From positions 4,087 through 68,086 of the forward strand of contig JAOAGQ010000022.1 in the NCBI GenBank assembly GCA_026415675.1: a stretch of DNA of 64,000 nucleotides, given 5' to 3'. The DNA comes from Syntrophorhabdaceae bacterium (GTDB lineage: Bacteria > Desulfobacterota > Syntrophorhabdia > Syntrophorhabdales > Syntrophorhabdaceae). Below the pieces are notes generated by a model. That model searched no databases. It was given only the letters and a program-made list of their open reading frames with translations, and was not told where the DNA came from. Positions 3,085-48,006 of the stretch are shown here, in pieces (positions within the stretch are counted from its first letter, which is position 1; the number at the start of each line of letters is the position of its first letter). Both the position numbers and the translations under genes were made by a program.

Positions 3085-4167
3085 ATGGGACACGAGCTCA
3101 CAAAAGATACGATCGATTTTCACGCTGTAGTTAACTCTTTAACGGATGGTATCATTGTGATCGATAGTGCCCGAAGGGTTGTCTTCTGGAACCCTGCCGC
3201 AGAGAAGATGCTTGGATTAAACGAAAAAACTGAAGGATCAAGAGAAATAAGGGATGTGATACAATATAGACCCCTATCCAATATCATCGAGAAAGGTTTT
3301 GGCCCAGAAACCTCTCAGTATTCGATTATTTCCGAGGAGGTAGAGATAGATTACCCCTCGGAGAGGACACTGATGGTGGATGTTCTAAGGGTTAAGGATG
3401 AGAAGGCCCAAGACTACGGTATTGTAAGTATTCTTAGGGATATCACGACATTAAAGAGTATAGGGAAGATAAAGTCACAGTTCGTTGCCATGGTCACCCA
3501 TGAGTTGAGGGCCCCTCTATCTGCTGTAGAGGGCTACCTTTCCGCCTTTATAAACCAATCGGCAGGAAATGACCCGCAGATGTATCTCGAGATGATGAAG
3601 AGGGCAAGACAGAGAACTAAAGCCCTTTTACAGTTGATTGAGGACCTCCTCCATTATTCTCGATTAGAGGCAAAGTCGCCACCGAGAAAGAGGGAGATGT
3701 TAAACATTCCAGAGTTAATATCGAATACTGTGGAGATGCTGAAATGTCAGAGCCGATCGAAGGATATTAAATTTAAAATCGATATAGACCATTCCATGCC
3801 TTTATTCGAGGCGGACCGGCAGGAGATGGAGCAGTTACTAACCAACCTTATCACAAACGCCATCAAATACAATAAAAAAGACGGAAAAGTCTTTATAAAG
3901 GCGTATACAGATAAAAAAAACCTGTGTATCGTTGTTCAGGATACGGGGATAGGCATCAATGAAGAGGATCTCCCTTATATATTTGATGAGTTTTTCAGGG
4001 CGAGCAATGCGGAGACCCGTTATATAACAGGTACAGGGCTGGGGTTAACTATCGTCAAGAAGATAGTGGACGCATATTTTGGAAAGATAACCGTTGAAAG
4101 CAAGGTGGGAAAAGGCACAAAGTTTACGGTGATTTTACCATGTAAGGATAAAAAAGGCACAAATTAA
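3085..4167 (+). CDS. PAS-domain sensor histidine kinase
   Basis: N-terminal PAS (GIIVIDSARRVVFWNPAAEKMLG), H-box VTHELRAPLSAV, N box NLITNAIKYN, G boxes DTGIGI and GTGLGLTIVK. Confidence 0.85.
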   Translation: MGHELTKDTIDFHAVVNSLTDGIIVIDSARRVVFWNPAAEKMLGLNEKTEGSREIRDVIQYRPLSNIIEKGFGPETSQYSIISEEVEIDYPSERTLMVDVLRVKDEKAQDYGIVSILRDITTLKSIGKIKSQFVAMVTHELRAPLSAVEGYLSAFINQSAGNDPQMYLEMMKRARQRTKALLQLIEDLLHYSRLEAKSPPRKREMLNIPELISNTVEMLKCQSRSKDIKFKIDIDHSMPLFEADRQEMEQLLTNLITNAIKYNKKDGKVFIKAYTDKKNLCIVVQDTGIGINEEDLPYIFDEFFRASNAETRYITGTGLGLTIVKKIVDAYFGKITVESKVGKGTKFTVILPCKDKKGTN

Positions 4168-4194: not shown

Positions 4195-6453
4195 ATGGCA
4201 GAACAACCAAAACTAAATGAAATTGTGGAAAAGAGACAGCTGGCCCCTTCGATCACCCTCTTCAAACTCTATACCCCCGACATTGCTAAGAAGGCAAAGC
4301 CGGGGCAGTTTGTAGTATTGAGGGCCGATGATTACGCAGAGAGGATACCCCTTACAATTGCCGATTTCGACAGGGAGAAAGGCCTTTTGACGGTAATCTT
4401 CCAGACCGTTGGCGCATCCACCCAGAAGCTCGAGCAGTTCAATGAGGGACAGACGATACTCGATGTGGTAGGTCCCCTTGGAAAACCAAGCCATATAGAG
4501 AAATTCGGAACCGTTGTGTGTGTGGGCGGTGGAGTGGGGGTCGCCCCTGTTTATCCGATCGCGAAGGCCTTATACGAAAAGGGGAATGAGGTAATCTCCA
4601 TCATAGGTGCGAGAAGCAAAGAGATGCTGATTCTCGAAGAAGAGATGAGGGCGGTAAGCCATACCCTCTATGTTACAACGGATGATGGTTCTTATGGTCA
4701 CCACGGTTTTGTGACGGATGTTCTGAAAAAGGTGATTGAGGAGGGTAAAAGAATAGACGAGGTGATAGGGATCGGGCCTGTGGTGATGATGAAGGCGGTG
4801 GCGGATGTAACGAGACCCTATAATCTGAAAACCATCGTAAGTCTGAACACGATAATGGTCGACGGTACCGGTATGTGCGGTTGCTGTCGGGCAACGATAG
4901 GGGGGCAGACAAAGTTTGTCTGTGTCGATGGCCCGGAGTTTGACGCCCATCAGGTGGACTTCAAAGAACTCCTCCTCCGCTCAAAGATGTACAGCAGGGA
5001 AGAGAGAAGGGCCATGTGGGACCATAAATGCAAGCTTGAGGCAAAGGAAAAGGCCTTGAAAAAGGTTAAGAAACGTGAGCCCATGCCCGAGCAGAACCCC
5101 AAGGTAAGGATTCAGAACTTCAACGAGGTAGCCCTCGGTTATACAAGGGAGAATGCCTTAAGGGAGGCATCGCGGTGTCTGAACTGCAAGAATATGCCCT
5201 GTGTGGAGGGGTGTCCCGTGAATGTCCAGATCCCAAAATTCATCAAAAAGATAAAGGAAGGGGATTTCATGGGAGCGATCCATACGATAAAGGAGACAAA
5301 CTCCCTTCCTGCGGTGTGCGGTCGTGTATGTCCCCAGGAGACCCAGTGTGAGGAAAAATGTGTCCTCGGAAAAAAGGGAGAACCTGTAGCGATAGGGAGA
5401 CTTGAACGTTTTGCCGCTGACTATGAGTTGAGCCTCGGAGAGGTAAGGGTCCCCGATCCGCCGAAACCTACAGGAAAAAAGGTTGCCGTTGTTGGCGCAG
5501 GCCCTGCAGGATTGACTGTGGCAGGGGAGCTGGCGAAAAAGGGGCATGATGTAACAGTATTCGAAGCCCTCCATAAGGCAGGGGGTGTCCTTGTGTACGG
5601 TATCCCCGAATTTCGTCTCCCCAAGGCCATAGTGCAGAGGGAGGTAGACTATGTGAGTAAACTCGGGGCAAAGATAAAGGTCGATACGATCATAGGACAG
5701 ACAACGACGGTGGATGAGCTCTTTGACCAGGGTTTTGACGCTATATTCATAGGCACCGGGGCAGGACTCCCTTATTTTATGGGCATTCCCGGGGAGAACC
5801 TAAACGGTGTATATTCCGCTAATGAGTTTCTCACAAGGGCGAACCTTATGAAGGCATATCTATTCCCCGAATACGACACCCCTGTCAGGGTAGGCAGTAA
5901 AGTCGCTGTAATAGGGGGCGGTAATGTGGCGATGGATGCGGCGAGGGTGTCAAAGAGGATGGGCGCCGATGATGTCTATCTCATATACAGGCGTTCCAGG
6001 ACGGAGATGCCTGCAAGGGCCGAGGAAGTCCATCACGCAGAGGAAGAGGGTATAGATTTCAGGCTCCTTACAAACCCTGTGAGGATTATCGGGGATGAGA
6101 ACGGCTGGGTGAAGGCGATAGAGTGTATAAGGATGGAACTCGGGGAACCCGATGCCTCCGGGAGGAGAAGACCTATCGAGATCAAGGGTTCCGAATATAC
6201 CATAGACGTTGATGTGGTCGTTGTGGCCATAGGGCAGGGGCCAAACCCCATACTCACATCCACAACAGAAGGTCTAAAGCTCCGTAAATCAGGAAACATC
6301 GAAGCGGATCCGGAGACAGGCAAGACGAGCAGAAAAGGGGTATTTGCCGGGGGAGATATAGTTACAGGGGCAGCTACCGTGATTCTCGCCATGGGGGCCG
6401 GAAGAAAGGCTGCCGCAGCCATAGACGAGTATCTAAAGACCGGCATCTGGTAA
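4195..6453 (+). CDS. nfnAB: fused NfnA-NfnB-type NADH-dependent reduced ferredoxin:NADP+ oxidoreductase (sulfide dehydrogenase/glutamate synthase small-subunit family)
   Basis: About the first 280 aa resemble the FNR / PyrK electron-transfer subunit (RIPLTIADF, GGGVGVAP, C-terminal CGCCR...C 2Fe-2S motif). The rest resembles the GltD/NfnB type: two Cys clusters (CLNCKNMPC...C; CGRVCPQETQCEEKC), GAGPAG Rossmann motifs and GGNVAMD. Confidence 0.8.
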   Translation: MAEQPKLNEIVEKRQLAPSITLFKLYTPDIAKKAKPGQFVVLRADDYAERIPLTIADFDREKGLLTVIFQTVGASTQKLEQFNEGQTILDVVGPLGKPSHIEKFGTVVCVGGGVGVAPVYPIAKALYEKGNEVISIIGARSKEMLILEEEMRAVSHTLYVTTDDGSYGHHGFVTDVLKKVIEEGKRIDEVIGIGPVVMMKAVADVTRPYNLKTIVSLNTIMVDGTGMCGCCRATIGGQTKFVCVDGPEFDAHQVDFKELLLRSKMYSREERRAMWDHKCKLEAKEKALKKVKKREPMPEQNPKVRIQNFNEVALGYTRENALREASRCLNCKNMPCVEGCPVNVQIPKFIKKIKEGDFMGAIHTIKETNSLPAVCGRVCPQETQCEEKCVLGKKGEPVAIGRLERFAADYELSLGEVRVPDPPKPTGKKVAVVGAGPAGLTVAGELAKKGHDVTVFEALHKAGGVLVYGIPEFRLPKAIVQREVDYVSKLGAKIKVDTIIGQTTTVDELFDQGFDAIFIGTGAGLPYFMGIPGENLNGVYSANEFLTRANLMKAYLFPEYDTPVRVGSKVAVIGGGNVAMDAARVSKRMGADDVYLIYRRSRTEMPARAEEVHHAEEEGIDFRLLTNPVRIIGDENGWVKAIECIRMELGEPDASGRRRPIEIKGSEYTIDVDVVVVAIGQGPNPILTSTTEGLKLRKSGNIEADPETGKTSRKGVFAGGDIVTGAATVILAMGAGRKAAAAIDEYLKTGIW

Positions 6454-30527: not shown

Positions 30528-30935
30528 ATGCCCTTTATAGAATGGACGGAGCAGAATAAGACAAATGTTAAAAAATGTGATGACCAGCATAAAAAGCTAT
30601 TCGACATTGTGAACAACCTGTATGATGGAATGAAGTCAGGGCAGGGGAGGACTGTGATGGGGAACGTGCTAAATGAACTCATCGATTACACGGTATATCA
30701 TTTTAAGACGGAAGAAGACCTTATGAAAAAATATAGTTACCCCGGACTTCTCCTCCACATTAAGGAGCATGAAAATCTGATGAAAAAGGCAGGGGAGTTA
30801 AAGCAGAGGTTTGACAGGGGTGAATCCGTTATAAGCGTTGAGGTTATGGAATTCCTGAAGGAATGGCTTACAAAACATACATCCGGTTCTGACAAAAAAT
30901 ACGGACAGTTTTTAAACGGAAAAGGTGTCTTTTAG
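30528..30935 (+). CDS. bacteriohemerythrin
   Basis: 135 aa. The opening is IEW....V...D.QHK.LF and the His/Asp iron ligand spacing (HFKTEE, HIKEH, WLTKHT..SD) matches. Confidence 0.8.
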   Translation: MPFIEWTEQNKTNVKKCDDQHKKLFDIVNNLYDGMKSGQGRTVMGNVLNELIDYTVYHFKTEEDLMKKYSYPGLLLHIKEHENLMKKAGELKQRFDRGESVISVEVMEFLKEWLTKHTSGSDKKYGQFLNGKGVF

Positions 30936-30944
30936 AAAAGGATA

Positions 30945-30974
30945 TTGACTTTCTCAGAAAAAAGTGTGTATATC
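30945..30974 (+). promoter_or_regulatory. candidate promoter of the selenium-operon leader
   Basis: TTGACT (30945-30950), 18 nt, TATATC (30969-30974), immediately after the hemerythrin stop. Confidence 0.4.
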
Positions 30975-30998
30975 CATACAAGAAAGGAGGTGAAAAAG

Positions 30999-31034
30999 AT
31001 GGGAAAACCCTTTGTTCCTCTATCCTTAACGTGA
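30999..31034 (+). CDS. 11-codon leader ORF (MGKPFVPLSLT) terminating at UGA; 43 codons if UGA is decoded
   Basis: AAAGGAGGTGA Shine-Dalgarno (GGAGG 30986-30990) lies 8 nt before ATG 30999. The in-frame TGA is at 31032-31034. The frame then stays open to the TGA at 31128-31130. It is too short for the ORF track. Confidence 0.35.
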   Translation: MGKPFVPLSLT

Positions 31035-31039
31035 GTGAT

Positions 31040-31064
31040 AATTAGGCCTAGTTTAGGCCTGATT
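31040..31064 (+). promoter_or_regulatory. SECIS-like stem-loop just downstream of the leader UGA
   Basis: Perfect AGGCCTA (31044-31050), GTT loop, TAGGCCT (31054-31060). AATT/GATT extends the stem to 11 bp. The 17-nt core starts 9 nt after the UGA and has G/U in the loop. Confidence 0.5.
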
Positions 31065-31068
31065 TATG

Positions 31069-31105
31069 AAATGGAGGAAGGGGAAGGGGTGTTTCCATTT
31101 TTTTT
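31069..31105 (+). terminator. weak terminator/attenuator-like hairpin with U8 tract
   Basis: AAATGGA (31069-31075) pairs with TCCATTT (31094-31100) around an 18-nt purine-rich loop. T8 lies at 31098-31105. The stem is AT-rich and short, so function is uncertain. Confidence 0.25.
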
Positions 31106-31137
31106 GCCTCTGAGTTCTATACCTTCCTGATGTATAG

Positions 31138-31152
31138 CCCCATCCTTCCTTC
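31138..31152 (+). promoter_or_regulatory. pyrimidine tract complementary both to the leader purine tract and to the yedE Shine-Dalgarno (candidate anti-SD)
   Basis: TCCTTCCTTC (31143-31152, within CCCCATCCTTCCTTC) can form 8 bp with GAAGGAGG (31185-31192). It can alternatively form about 10 bp with GGAGGAAGGG (31073-31082). Confidence 0.35.
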
Positions 31153-31197
31153 ATAGAAAAAACATAGAAATATAGCTAAACCATGAAGGAGGAGAAT

Positions 31198-32295
31198 ATG
31201 CCAATTAAACTGTTCAGTTTTTTTGCAACAAGAGGGGGTATCATAATAGTGGGGGCGATAATAGGTATTATTGCCACAATCCTACAAAAACTGGGAAATC
31301 CCCCAAATATGGGGGTCTGCGTTGCCTGCTTTGAGAGGGATATTGCAGGGGCCTTAGGATTTCACAGGGCCTCAATCGCCCAGTATATGCGTCCTGAGAT
31401 CATAGGTTTTGTCCTGGGCTCTTTCATAGCCGCAAACCTTTTCAGGGAATTCAGAGCCCGGACCGGTTCTGCCCCTATCGTTAGATTTATACTCGGGGTA
31501 TTTGCGATGATCGGGGGCCTTGTTTTCTTGGGCTGTCCTTGGAGGGCGGCCTTACGTCTTGCCGGGGGCGATGGCAATGCCATATTAGGAATCGCAGGTC
31601 TTGCCGTAGGGATTTGGATAGGCACCCTGTTTCTTAAAAGTGGGTACAACCTCGGCAGGTCTCAGTCAACCCACACCACCGTAGGGTGGCTTATGCCGTT
31701 GACCATGCTGGGTTTTCTGATACTGATTCTTGTATTTCCCCAGATCCCGGGTCAGGATAAAAGCGGTATCCTCTTCTACAGCATAAAAGGGCCCGGGGCA
31801 TTACATGCCCCTTTGGTTATATCCCTTTTTGCCGGTCTTTTCATCGGTTTTCTCGCTCAGAGAAGTAGATTCTGTACAATGGGGGCCATCCGGGATTTTA
31901 TTCTCTTCAGGCAAACCCATCTCCTTTCAGGTCTTTTCTCTCTAATCGTTTTTGCCTTTTTTACGAACATAATACTCGGACAGTTCAACCCTGGTTTTGA
32001 GAAACAACCCATAGCCCACACGATGGCGCTATGGAATTTTATGGGGATGGTTCTCGCAGGGCTTTCATTTTCACTGGCAGGAGGCTGCCCGGGAAGACAG
32101 CTATTTCTCGCAGGAGAAGGGGACGGGGATGCGGCGGTTTTCGTCATGGGTATGATAGTGGGGGCAGGGATCTCCCATAATTTCGGTCTGGCAAGCTCTC
32201 CTGATGGTATAGGGCCTTATGGTGTCTATGGGGTTATCATAGGGCTTTTATTCTGTCTATTTATAGGCTTTACCATGAGAAAACAGATTGCATGA
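31198..32295 (+). CDS. yedE: YedE/YeeE-family putative selenium/sulfur-compound transporter
   Basis: Polytopic membrane protein with conserved Cys-containing re-entrant motifs (GVCVACF, RFCTMGA, GGCPGRQ). ATG 31198 (MPIKLF) is preferred because AAGGAGGA sits 5 nt upstream. The track start is 31183. Confidence 0.8.
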   Translation: MPIKLFSFFATRGGIIIVGAIIGIIATILQKLGNPPNMGVCVACFERDIAGALGFHRASIAQYMRPEIIGFVLGSFIAANLFREFRARTGSAPIVRFILGVFAMIGGLVFLGCPWRAALRLAGGDGNAILGIAGLAVGIWIGTLFLKSGYNLGRSQSTHTTVGWLMPLTMLGFLILILVFPQIPGQDKSGILFYSIKGPGALHAPLVISLFAGLFIGFLAQRSRFCTMGAIRDFILFRQTHLLSGLFSLIVFAFFTNIILGQFNPGFEKQPIAHTMALWNFMGMVLAGLSFSLAGGCPGRQLFLAGEGDGDAAVFVMGMIVGAGISHNFGLASSPDGIGPYGVYGVIIGLLFCLFIGFTMRKQIA

Positions 32296-32311
32296 GAAAG
32301 GAGGGATGACC

Positions 32312-32530
32312 ATGGATAAAGTGATAGATGCGAGGGGGCTTTCGTGTCCTCAACCTGTCATATTAACGATGAATGAGATAAAAAAGGTTAAGAAGGGGGA
32401 GATCGTGATACTTGTAGATACCGAAACCTCAAAAGAGAATGTGGTTCGGGCCGCAATTACAAACGGGTGGACCGTAAAAGGTATTGAGAACGAAGAAGAA
32501 GGTTACAGGATTTCCATCGTAAAGGGATGA
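32312..32530 (+). CDS. yedF: TusA/YedF-like sulfurtransferase-fold protein
   Basis: MDKVIDARGLSCPQPV carries the CPxP active-site motif of the TusA/SirA family. AAAGGAGGG lies 7 nt upstream of ATG 32312. The track ORF starts at 32288 and overlaps the yedE stop. Confidence 0.8.
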   Translation: MDKVIDARGLSCPQPVILTMNEIKKVKKGEIVILVDTETSKENVVRAAITNGWTVKGIENEEEGYRISIVKG

Positions 32531-32579: not shown

Positions 32580-34001
32580 ATGAGGTGGTCATTGATAGTG
32601 GAACTTCTAAGAGGGATACCGAAGACAGATGAGATTTTAAAACATACGGAATGGAAAAGGATATCGGGTCTCTATCCCGAGACGGTTATGAAAGATGCGC
32701 TAAGAGAAGTGTTGAATGGGTTGAGGGAAGGTATAAAGCAGGGGTATGTGCAGGGGATCCCCCCCTTAGAAGAAATCATAGACCGCACGGAAGAGAAAGC
32801 AAAGAGGTTTATAAAACCGGGTCTTACAAGGGTGATAAATGGAACAGGGGTTATCATCCATACAAATATGGGGAGGTCCCTCTTACCTAAATATGCCATT
32901 GAAGCGGTAATCCAGAGGGCCTCCCACTTTTGTAACCTCGAATATGACCTCGATAAGGGTTCAAGGGGGGATAGGTATGTACACTCCGTGTCCGTCCTCC
33001 AAAGACTTACAGGCTGTGAGTCTGCCCTTATAGTGAACAACAATGCCGCTGCAGTATACCTTATCTTAAACACCCTCGCAGAGGGGAGAGAGGTCGTGAT
33101 CTCGAGGGGGGAACTCGTAGAGATTGGCGGCTCTTTCCGCATCCCCGATGTGATGAAAAAAAGTGGGGCAATCCTTAAAGAGGTGGGGACAACAAACAGG
33201 ACTTACAGGGAAGATTACGAAGCCGCGATAACGGAATCAACAGGACTACTCATGAAGGTGCACACGAGTAACTACAGGATAAAAGGGTTTGTCTATGAGA
33301 CCTCAAGCGAGGATATCATAGCCCTGGCTAAAAAGTATAACCTCCCTTCATATTTTGATGCGGGAAGTGGTTTACTCTTTCCATTGCAAGGTCTGGATTC
33401 GATAAATGAGCCTTCTATTATAGAGGAGACGAAGAAAGGTTGGAGCCTGATCTCCTTCAGCGGGGATAAACTCTTAGGAGGACCTCAAGCAGGTATCATA
33501 ATTGGCGAAAAACCATATATTGATGCGATGAAGAAAAACCCCATGACAAGGGCGATGAGACCGGATAAGTTCACCCTTGCCGCTCTCGAGGCGATACTCC
33601 TTACCTATCTTGAAGGGGACAGGGCGAAAGAAAAGATTTTAACCTTAAAGATGATATACGAAGGGAAAGAAAGGATCAAAGCGCGATCGAAAAGGGTGAT
33701 AAAGTATCTTGAAGACCTGGGGGGTCACGGGAAAGCCTTCTCCATCACCTTGGTTGAGCTTGAATCCCAGGTGGGGGGCGGGAGTCTCCCGGATGTCTAT
33801 CTCCCATCGTACGGTATAGCGATAAAGCCAAAGACTATAACAATAGAGAGACTCGAGGGGATTCTCAGAGCCCTTGAGGTTCCCATAATAGGCAGGATAG
33901 AGAAGGATACCCTTCTTATAGACTTAAGGACTATACTACCTGAAGACGAACCCTATCTAATAAAAGGTTTAAAAGAGGCGATTGCAAAGGCCCTTGAGTG
34001 A
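32580..34001 (+). CDS. selA: L-seryl-tRNA(Sec) selenium transferase
   Basis: 473 aa. It has the N-terminal LLRGIPKTDEIL motif, the NNNAAAV block and the PLP-lysine motif FSGDKLLGGPQAG. Confidence 0.9.
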   Translation: MRWSLIVELLRGIPKTDEILKHTEWKRISGLYPETVMKDALREVLNGLREGIKQGYVQGIPPLEEIIDRTEEKAKRFIKPGLTRVINGTGVIIHTNMGRSLLPKYAIEAVIQRASHFCNLEYDLDKGSRGDRYVHSVSVLQRLTGCESALIVNNNAAAVYLILNTLAEGREVVISRGELVEIGGSFRIPDVMKKSGAILKEVGTTNRTYREDYEAAITESTGLLMKVHTSNYRIKGFVYETSSEDIIALAKKYNLPSYFDAGSGLLFPLQGLDSINEPSIIEETKKGWSLISFSGDKLLGGPQAGIIIGEKPYIDAMKKNPMTRAMRPDKFTLAALEAILLTYLEGDRAKEKILTLKMIYEGKERIKARSKRVIKYLEDLGGHGKAFSITLVELESQVGGGSLPDVYLPSYGIAIKPKTITIERLEGILRALEVPIIGRIEKDTLLIDLRTILPEDEPYLIKGLKEAIAKALE

Positions 34002-47880: not shown

Positions 47881-47979
47881 AAAACCAGGCCCTGCGCAAC
47901 GTGAAGGTTACAAACCCCGTCAGGTTCGGAAGAAAGCAGCGGTAGTAACCGCTCCGGGTGCCGCAGGTAGCCTGGTTTT
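47881..47979 (+). ncRNA. ffs: signal recognition particle RNA (4.5S-type core)
   Basis: GUCAGGUUCGGAAGAAAGCAGC matches the universal domain IV motif with its GGAA tetraloop. Flanking arms pair in nested order: CCAGGC/GCCUGG, CCUGCG/CGCAGG and GGUUAC/GUAACC. The position just upstream of dnaX-ybaB-recR is the classic synteny. The ends are approximate. Confidence 0.85.
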
Positions 47980-48006
47980 ATAAGATTTATAGAAAGATTT
48001 TCCGGA

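Follow-up and report, generated by a model that had tools for sequence, protein, structure and literature searches.

A conserved leader ORF with an in-frame UGA and a SECIS-like hairpin, a candidate sensor of selenocysteine decoding in front of a putative selenium-transporter operon of Desulfobacterota

How bacteria regulate selenium homeostasis is largely unknown, according to a comparative study from 2015 (PMC5322559), and no organism is known to possess a dedicated selenium transporter (PMC11097638). A few described systems nevertheless bear on how a selenium operon might sense its own need. In the 5' untranslated region (UTR) of E. coli selAB, a hairpin of the selenocysteine insertion sequence (SECIS) type lies 3 nt from the Shine-Dalgarno sequence (SD) of selA, with no open reading frame (ORF) or UGA; SelB, as the SelB·GTP·Sec-tRNA complex (Sec, selenocysteine), acts through it as a translational repressor, giving feedback from Sec decoding (Thanbichler and Böck 2002, as summarized in PMC13449736). 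In the E. coli leader PepNL (PMC11890864), a short nascent peptide of 14 residues blocks release factor 2 (RF2) at a UGA; the block is relieved when an aminoacyl-tRNA, here the near-cognate Trp-tRNA acting with no mRNA signal, decodes the UGA, and translation then runs to a downstream stop. In Treponema primitia fdhF-Sec (PMC3892789), the success or failure of decoding a UGA as Sec inside the enzyme's own gene decides downstream expression through polarity, selenium acting on transcription by way of translational coupling. Finally, the trp/his and ermC/cat attenuators share a short 5' ORF with its own SD, whose critical codon lies near the end of the ORF and inside the first of four RNA segments; in ermC, the output is the sequestered SD of the next gene. 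Here we describe a leader with traits of all of these, located in a 64,000-nt stretch of a Syntrophorhabdaceae bacterium (contig JAOAGQ010000022.1; hereafter "the window") upstream of yedE, which encodes a putative selenium transporter, and yedF. An original prediction, made from the letters of the window, had proposed that this leader measures Sec-decoding capacity. We think it rather probable that the leader belongs to a family of natural riboregulators in which recoding is the sensor: its UGA, decoded by way of its own SECIS, would report on Sec-tRNA(Sec)/SelB and thereby control yedEF, selA and selD, in a family that extends across Syntrophorhabdia, Syntrophia and related Desulfobacterota and has two paralogous copies in at least one genome.

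We compared the window with 80 yedE loci, taken from one genome per species (81 loci with the window). The closest of these belong to metagenome-assembled genomes of Syntrophorhabdaceae and Syntrophaceae, with YedE identities of up to 82%. Upstream regions were searched in two independent ways, by a peptide pattern that accepted any stop codon and by the shape of the hairpin alone, and the leader unit was present upstream of yedE-yedF in 13 of the 81 loci, window included. A covariance model built from these first 13 members returned no further copy from the 80 loci and the rest of the window; it also led to a second, diverged leader copy in one locus, L087, which is treated below. A metagenome scan added 15 loci, with a hairpin at the expected place in every one; the scan pattern fixed the leader SD (SD1), parts of the ORF and the TGA, and these matches count for hairpin, spacing, frame and gene context only. 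The leader is now represented by 25 distinct sequences from Syntrophorhabdaceae, Syntrophaceae and related Desulfobacterota, and their kinship means that the shuffle statistics reported below overstate their independence.

The gene upstream of the leader varies among the leader-bearing loci of the yedE set, while yedE-yedF is the constant downstream neighbor. No homologue of the hemerythrin-like gene that precedes the leader in the window was found in the related yedE loci. The leader had been placed in front of a yedE-yedF-selA operon; the first two genes hold in the relatives, but selA stands behind yedF in the window only, and a SelA homologue occurs within ~4 kb downstream in none of the 80 related yedE loci. 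Searches of the window and 16 member loci against Rfam, at permissive and gathering thresholds, gave chance matches only for the leader, such as snoR135 (E 0.18), which merely follows the two helices. Sequence comparison indicates that the leader is a conserved unit rather than a chance arrangement.

This arrangement raises a question: is the short ORF translated? All members have a strong SD and an ATG start codon (GTG in one), and the ORF has a length of 11 codons in all but one of the first 13 members, the exception having 10. In the window, the predicted series of an SD whose GGAGG core ends 8 nt before the ATG, 11 sense codons (MGKPFVPLSLT) and a TGA was confirmed; the string AGGAGGTGA in the leader SD is common to the MGKP subfamily. 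Codons 2–6 are not conserved (MKNTAT, MRIRLK, MERLQI, MVELQK, MGRYEA, MGKPFV and others). Codons 7–10, by comparison, read P-[L/F]-S-[L/I] and vary mostly at third positions: the entropies at codon positions 1, 2 and 3 are 0.63, 0.10 and 1.24, and five Leu codons are in use. Such third-position variation is a protein-coding signature and is not explained by RNA pairing alone. The peptide of L089, the closest relative, is identical to that of the window, with two synonymous changes. The stop codon is TGA in all 14 members that were found without fixing it.

A sigma-70-like promoter lies directly upstream of the leader in the window (Table 1), and TTGAC/T-17 nt-TAtaaT boxes occupy the equivalent position in the relatives that were inspected, ending 10–25 nt before SD1. 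A promoter and terminator consensus scan of the leader listed no promoter, the GTATAT of the window failing the scanner's A2/T6 rule, and called no terminator. The promoter-like site predicts a transcript start near 30980, which would put the leader ORF at the extreme 5' end of the transcript as its first element. Judged by its SD, start codon, constant length, coding signature and promoter, the short 5' ORF is, by comparison among members, a translated one.

The hairpin behind the UGA (hairpin 2) had been described in the window as lying 9 nt past the TGA and as extendable to 11 bp, and both descriptions proved accurate; the extended stem spans 31040–31064. Compensatory changes affect 6 of its 8 stem pairs in the alignment of the first 13 sequences, where 97% of cells pair, and 5 of 8 in the alignment of 25, where 98% do. 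The SD-ATG-UGA-hairpin arrangement, with compensatory stem changes, is thereby found in relatives, as the original prediction would have it. Stem variants include AGGCCUA, GAGACCCA, AGACCUA, GAGGCUUA and GGACCCG, and the covariation score was reached by none of 500 shuffles. The stem also contains many G·U pairs, which together with the compensatory changes point to an RNA structure on the plus strand. A DNA-level operator palindrome was rejected on the strength of these G·U pairs and of far weaker scores for the minus strand.

The loop and its position are equally constrained. Most members have a GGU triloop; GUU occurs in the window and L012, GGC in L034 and GGA in L082, always with G first. 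In 26 of 26 sequences the triloop begins at an exact distance from the UGA, 16 nt in class A, to which the window belongs, and 28 nt in class B; the 12-nt difference between the classes keeps the reading frame. Class B owes its longer spacing to an extra hairpin (hairpin 1) directly behind the UGA; its loops are variable, and hairpin 1 was rejected as the true SECIS for this lack of conservation. A CsrA-type site, which has a GGA loop, was also rejected, as the GGU and GUU loops do not fit. For comparison with authentic elements, selD with an in-frame UGA is found in many of these contigs, five of which bear the leader (L013, L019, L071, L084 and L095). The native selD SECIS hairpins on the same contigs have a 6–10-bp stem and a GGA, GGG or GGC triloop 20 nt after the UGA, and hairpin 2 has the same architecture. 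In the window itself, no native selenoprotein gene was found for a same-genome comparison; the most promising candidate turned out to encode an ordinary histidine kinase. A G-containing apical loop at a set distance behind the UGA is the hallmark of bacterial SECIS elements. The bSECISearch model of Zhang and Gladyshev from 2005 reportedly places the apical loop ~16–37 nt after the UGA, with a G early in the loop, and the spacing and loop values of hairpin 2 fall inside that range. Every sequence-level SECIS feature that was tested is present, and the UGA and hairpin 2 look like a working SECIS.

If the UGA is decoded, the ribosome must find an open frame beyond it. The 31 open codons that had been counted in the window were confirmed, and the frame is open for 21–50 codons in all members (34 in 9 of the 16 class-B sequences); in the other two frames, a stop is met after a median of ~5–8 codons. 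Within the first 21 codons of class A, or 25 of class B, frame 0 holds no stop triplet, against 33 distinct ones in frames +1 and +2. With equal chance per frame, the probability of this outcome is ~1.5e-6, or ~3e-4 if ~20 of them are independent. The hairpin consensus itself contains TAG twice (CC-UAG-GU-UAG-G), always phased such that both are out of frame. Conservation is lacking in the read-through peptide, by comparison, and even the window and L089 have just GPRLGL in common, a stretch dictated by the sequence of the hairpin; no family in Pfam or NCBIfam matched the read-through peptides. An open frame combined with an unconserved peptide argues for selection on the ability of the ribosome to continue, not on the product. 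The recoding event itself, rather than a protein, appears to be the function.

The genes that the leader accompanies point in the same direction. In L087/L095, one leader copy (MERLQTPLSQI-UGA) precedes yedE-yedF, and the second, diverged copy (MGKPQAPFSIQ-UGA) lies downstream of yedE-yedF, ~490 nt before another cluster. This cluster encodes a double-cubane-protein fragment, a long YedF (TIGR03527), a redox-disulfide domain protein and a Sec-containing SelD. The two operon types that carry the same leader have only selenium function in common.

Several details of these loci were recorded in passing. The two copies belong to one organism and are located at 5153–5277 and 2366–2491 in L087 (reverse strand) and, in L095, at 2275–2400. 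The first gene of the second cluster in L095 (2819–3091) encodes a 90-aa N-terminal fragment of a double-cubane-cluster reductase and overlaps yedF. Directly upstream of the second copy, at 2230–2275 in L095 and at the equivalent place in L087, is a T-arm-like string, GCGCAGGTTCGAAACGGGCGCC; a tRNA-Sec at this site was rejected, with neither ARAGORN nor Rfam calling a tRNA there. More broadly, a Sec-containing selD, with an in-frame TGA ~17–38 codons from its start, lies 1.5–3 kb downstream of yedE-yedF in many Desulfobacterota loci (examples of the TGA position are L011 6784, L013 6854, L019 7225, L044 6789, L048 6787 and L071 4887). To judge from these gene orders, yedEF and selD form a recurrent neighborhood and may form an operon.

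How might decoding of the UGA reach yedE? Behind hairpin 2, every member has 15–17 purines in 17 nt (tract b), then 12–15 pyrimidines in 15 nt (tract d) and then the yedE SD (SD2); upstream, codons 7–10 are themselves a pyrimidine tract (tract a). All three duplexes, a:b, b:d and d:SD2, could form in each of the members, at median energies of -17.6, -30.3 and -14.0 kcal/mol, respectively, and the minimum-energy folds contain a:b and d:SD2 in some homologues and b:d in others. The 241-nt leader of the window has a fold of -80.1 kcal/mol (z = -5.0 versus shuffles), predicted as a single long helix (30981–31118) that has hairpin 2 at its tip; a second helix joins tract d to the yedE SD. This SD is thus predicted to be paired in the window (P unpaired ~0). 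Its median P(unpaired) is 0.015 in 12 members versus 0.27 in 64 leaderless yedE loci (Mann-Whitney p = 3.5e-4). In constrained folding with a simulated ribosome on the UGA, exposure of the SD rises in ~5 of 13 homologues, and ribosome positions reached by read-through close it again.

One further strand, rich in U, pairs with the SD and AUG of the leader itself and is called here the anti-ribosome-binding-site (anti-RBS) strand. The duplex amounts to -27.5 kcal/mol in the window (z = -5.1), and a z of -4.1 was obtained for L083. The original prediction had seen a U8-tailed hairpin at this place; there is no separate terminator, and the U8 belongs to the 3' strand of the long helix that pairs the leader SD and start codon. 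The U-run was accordingly rejected as an intrinsic terminator: it is the complement of the A-rich spacer between SD and AUG, and the runs of the relatives track that spacer. No consistent intrinsic terminator was found in the leader. On the folding model, the anti-RBS pairing suggests that the leader is translated mainly during ongoing transcription.

These observations can be assembled into a mechanism, for which all of the evidence is comparative and thermodynamic. We give about even chances to the reading that the translated leader gauges the capacity to decode UGA as selenocysteine and sets the expression of the selenium-uptake operon behind it. Comparison among members supports its components, namely a translated ORF, an invariant UGA, a SECIS-type hairpin at a fixed distance, a frame protected across the purine tract, a sequestered yedE SD and linkage to selenium genes. 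The original proposal of a leader that measures Sec-decoding capacity likewise draws support from the invariance of the UGA, the coding signature, the count of 0 versus 33 stop triplets and the second copy before yedF-selD. In an arrangement of the erm/trp type, the four segments would be the end of the ORF (1, tract a), the purine tract (2, tract b), the pyrimidine tract (3, tract d) and the yedE SD (4). Without a ribosome, 1:2 and 3:4 would pair, and yedE would be off. A shortage of Sec-tRNA(Sec)·SelB would make the ribosome dwell on the UGA, which would serve as the hungry codon, and RF2 may be slowed by the conserved P-[L/F]-S-[L/I]-x of the nascent chain in the manner of PepNL, a precedent that suggests a role for this motif. 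The paused ribosome would mask segment 1, allowing 2:3 to pair, and the yedE SD would be freed and the operon turned on. When Sec-tRNA(Sec)·SelB is present, hairpin 2 would recruit it and Sec would be inserted; the ribosome would then cross segment 2 to a stop just before segment 3, whereupon 3:4 would pair and the operon would be off. The net effect would be negative feedback of Sec-decoding capacity on YedE/YedF and, in the window, also on SelA.

As to sign and mechanism, we infer that the operon is probably on when Sec decoding fails. The frame is kept open across segment 2, something to be expected only if read-through serves to undo 2:3, and this favors an operon that is off when Sec is decoded. 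Three results from other organisms count toward the same sign: in Methanococcus maripaludis, selenium starvation raises yedE mRNA by 5.3 log2 (PMC11097638); the selAB precedent in E. coli is one of repression by SelB·GTP·Sec-tRNA (PMC13449736); and with PepNL, decoding of the UGA releases a ribosome arrested there (PMC11890864).

Several points weigh against this scheme. Equilibrium folding with a ribosome on the UGA leaves the yedE SD closed in the window and in several homologues, and equilibrium folds with the ribosome footprint at the UGA, in mid-frame or at the second stop revealed no switch in the window and no consistent one among the homologues. The purine and pyrimidine tracts are of low complexity and pair in many registers; covariation therefore cannot confirm a:b or b:d. 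The anti-RBS pairing is significant in the MGKP subfamily only, to which the window belongs, and not in the PFSL subfamily. The base of the class-B hairpin is ~20 nt from the UGA, longer than the 11 nt of the E. coli fdhF SECIS, and the extra hairpin would also need to be melted. The GGA and GGC loops do not have the U of the E. coli G-U pair. Lastly, the second copy in L087/L095 is ~490 nt from the next gene; sequestration of an SD cannot be the output there, and action at a distance would be needed.

The pause on the UGA could also be read with the opposite sign. Slow SelB-mediated decoding would then itself hold the ribosome long enough to free the yedE SD; the operon would be on only while Sec-tRNA(Sec) is made (a feed-forward circuit), and fast termination by RF2 during selenium starvation would keep it off. 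Sec insertion is indeed slow in E. coli, and in the constrained folds a ribosome on the UGA raises SD exposure regardless of why it has paused. With this sign, however, the open frame across tract b would be counter-productive, undoing the on state; the conserved peptide would be left unexplained; and in M. maripaludis it is selenium starvation that induces yedE (PMC11097638). We regard this version as unlikely.

A decidedly unlikely explanation, in our estimation, is that of a SelB operator that works without decoding, in which hairpin 2 only binds SelB (with or without Sec-tRNA), this binding alters how the RNA folds, and ribosomes on the ORF never get past the UGA. It would account for hairpin 2 being the most strongly conserved RNA element, and the selAB 5' UTR offers a precedent (PMC13449736). 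It leaves unexplained, however, why the UGA is invariant, why the spacing is fixed in frame at 16 or 28 nt and why 33 stop triplets fall outside the frame and none in it; moreover, ~125 nt separate hairpin 2 from the yedE SD, compared with the 3 nt of selAB.

The conserved C-terminal peptide with its coding signature admits yet another interpretation, supported by the PepNL precedent (PMC11890864): the peptide might stall the ribosome at the UGA independently of Sec, in the manner of TnaC or PepNL, with the leader sensing RF2 or some other signal and the hairpin serving merely as part of the switch. Such a leader would not be expected to be tied to selenium genes in two unrelated operon types, or to possess a G-first triloop at SECIS spacing like those of the native selD hairpins, and we consider it very unlikely.

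Could the ORF instead encode a genuine small selenoprotein of ~33–62 aa (M-x5-P-[LF]-S-[LI]-x-U-...), for example a selenium carrier co-expressed with yedEF? The combination of UGA, SECIS-like hairpin and open frame matches exactly the appearance of a selenoprotein gene. What follows the Sec position does not: the peptide is unconserved even between the window and L089, GPRLGL being dictated by the hairpin, the length varies from 21 to 50 codons, and no protein family matched. The ORF furthermore lies within a set of competing RNA pairings by which the next gene's SD is sequestered. A small selenoprotein is, to our minds, highly improbable. Virtually no credence is left for a non-functional arrangement, that is, a chance ORF beside the terminator of the upstream gene or a palindromic repeat: although the region forms a long hairpin with a U-run directly after the stop of the hemerythrin gene, the unit travels with yedE or selD and not with the upstream gene (no related locus has a hemerythrin homologue), the window contains the unit only once, the stem shows G·U pairs and compensatory changes, a promoter sits between the upstream gene and the hairpin, and the comparative data already effectively refute it.

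Table 1. Features of the leader region and neighboring genes, in coordinates of the window
Feature	Position	Strand	Details
Hemerythrin-like gene (upstream neighbor)	stop 30933–30935		263-nt spacer separates stop from yedE
Sigma-70-like promoter	30945–30973	+	-35 TTGACT (30945–30950), 17-nt spacer, TG-n-GTATAT (-10 = 30968–30973)
Leader SD (SD1)	30983–30993	+	AAAGGAGGTGA; GGAGG core ends 8 nt, 11-mer 5 nt, before ATG
Leader ORF	30999–31034	+	ATG, 11 sense codons MGKPFVPLSLT (to 31031), UGA = codon 12 (31032–31034)
Codons 7–10	31017–31028		CCT CTA TCC TTA; conserved P-L-S-L motif = pyrimidine tract a
Spacer between UGA and hairpin 2	31035–31043		9 nt
Hairpin 2, SECIS-like	31044–31060	+	7-bp stem AGGCCUA/UAGGCCU, triloop GUU; loop begins 16 nt after UGA
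Read-through frame	31035–31130	+	31 codons open past UGA; second in-frame stop TGA 31128–31130
Purine tract b	31073–31089	+	GGAGGAAGGGGAAGGGG; able to pair with tract a or tract d
Anti-RBS strand, U-rich	31090–31111	+	UGUUUCCAUUUUUUUUGCCUCU; pairs with the leader's own SD and AUG
Pyrimidine tract c	31122–31127		CCUUCC; smaller than tract d
Pyrimidine tract d	31138–31152	+	CCCCAUCCUUCCUUC; predicted anti-SD for yedE and alternative partner of b
yedE SD (SD2)	31185–31194	+	GAAGGAGGAG
yedE	31198–32295	+	likely start ATG 31198; TIGR04112 'putative selenium transporter', E 6e-146 (NCBIfam)
yedF	32288–32530	+	short YedF/TusA (Pfam, NCBIfam)
selA	32580–34001	+	SelA (Pfam, NCBIfam)
RluD-like pseudouridine synthase gene			also downstream of the leader in the window

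Apart from these features, a 26-nt direct repeat with 73% identity links the ribosome-binding regions of the leader (30969–30994, TATATCCATACAAGAAAGGAGGTGAA) and of yedE (31171–31196, TATAGCTAAACCATGAAGGAGGAGAA) in the window; it may simply reflect two strong SDs. An exact-protein look-up of the window's YedE, with two choices of start, returned no record. Elsewhere in the 64-kb window, the bacterial small signal recognition particle RNA (RF00169, 73.4 bits) at 47883–47980 is the sole curated RNA family, and ARAGORN found no tRNA genes in it.

Other elements were seen upstream of yedE in the relatives. In eight loci without the leader (L002, L007, L010, L011, L015, L021, L041 and L052), a different conserved element lies ~40–90 nt upstream (~3900–3960) and consists of ATTTGACATATAG-N8-10-CTATG, with a -35-like box overlapping an inverted repeat. 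By its sequence it looks like a promoter with a protein operator, and the yedE transporter may therefore be under transcription-factor control in these genomes. Three class-B members have an extra conserved insert of ~150–170 nt between tract d and the yedE SD (L019 ~3800–3985, L022 ~3800–3985 and L004 ~3830–3985), with the sequence ...CGTCAAA.GATCACG.TAA.GATGCCCGTATCGTTAA.GGGTTAC...TTTGACGCTAAGCGAAACTGGCCTCGT..CCGTAACC.... The insert matched nothing in Rfam, with L019 searched at the permissive threshold and all three at the gathering threshold; it may be a second regulatory RNA in tandem.

If the proposed mechanism is true, the leader would be the first attenuator of the leader-peptide type found to respond to the 21st amino acid, and a recoding signal would be used here to sense, not to make a protein. 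It would provide independent regulatory evidence for a part of YedE/YedF in selenium supply. It would also supply a compact genetic part of ~200 nt that reports selenium or Sec-decoding status in vivo, and it would allow direct tests of how RF2 and SelB compete at a UGA. A search of full-text literature, mostly open access and including a 2026 review of prokaryotic selenoproteomes, found no such leader described.

How, then, does this leader stand among the known systems? It shares with E. coli selAB (PMC13449736) a SECIS-type hairpin in the leader of a Sec-pathway operon. The hairpin of the window, however, lies 9 nt behind a translated UGA and ~125 nt from the yedE SD, with the frame open beyond it; by its position, its translated UGA and its protected frame, the leader as read here is not a selAB-type operator. 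Its likeness to the selD SECIS elements of L013, L019, L071 and L095 extends to the in-frame UGA, a 6–10-bp stem, a G-first triloop 16–28 nt on (20 nt in selD) and the open frame, but the leader product, unlike those of selenoprotein genes, has no conserved sequence after Sec. As in T. primitia fdhF-Sec (PMC3892789), the outcome of UGA(Sec) decoding would decide downstream expression; here, however, the UGA is in a dedicated leader before other genes.

The short leader ORF ending in UGA recalls PepNL (PMC11890864), with 11 aa here. No sequence similarity between the two peptides is apparent, and arrest by the leader peptide is something that we infer; moreover, where PepNL relies on a near-cognate tRNA, a SECIS-like hairpin would direct Sec-tRNA to the UGA in our case. 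With the trp/his and ermC/cat attenuators, the leader has in common the short 5' ORF with the critical codon near its end, the proposed place of this codon within segment 1 of four and, for ermC, the predicted output. It differs from them in that its hungry codon would be a stop, which a dedicated elongation factor bound to an mRNA hairpin would have to recode, and in that the quantity sensed would be Sec-tRNA(Sec)/SelB and not a standard aminoacyl-tRNA or an antibiotic. The leader has the layout of an attenuator, but its signal would be the recoding of a stop codon by SelB.

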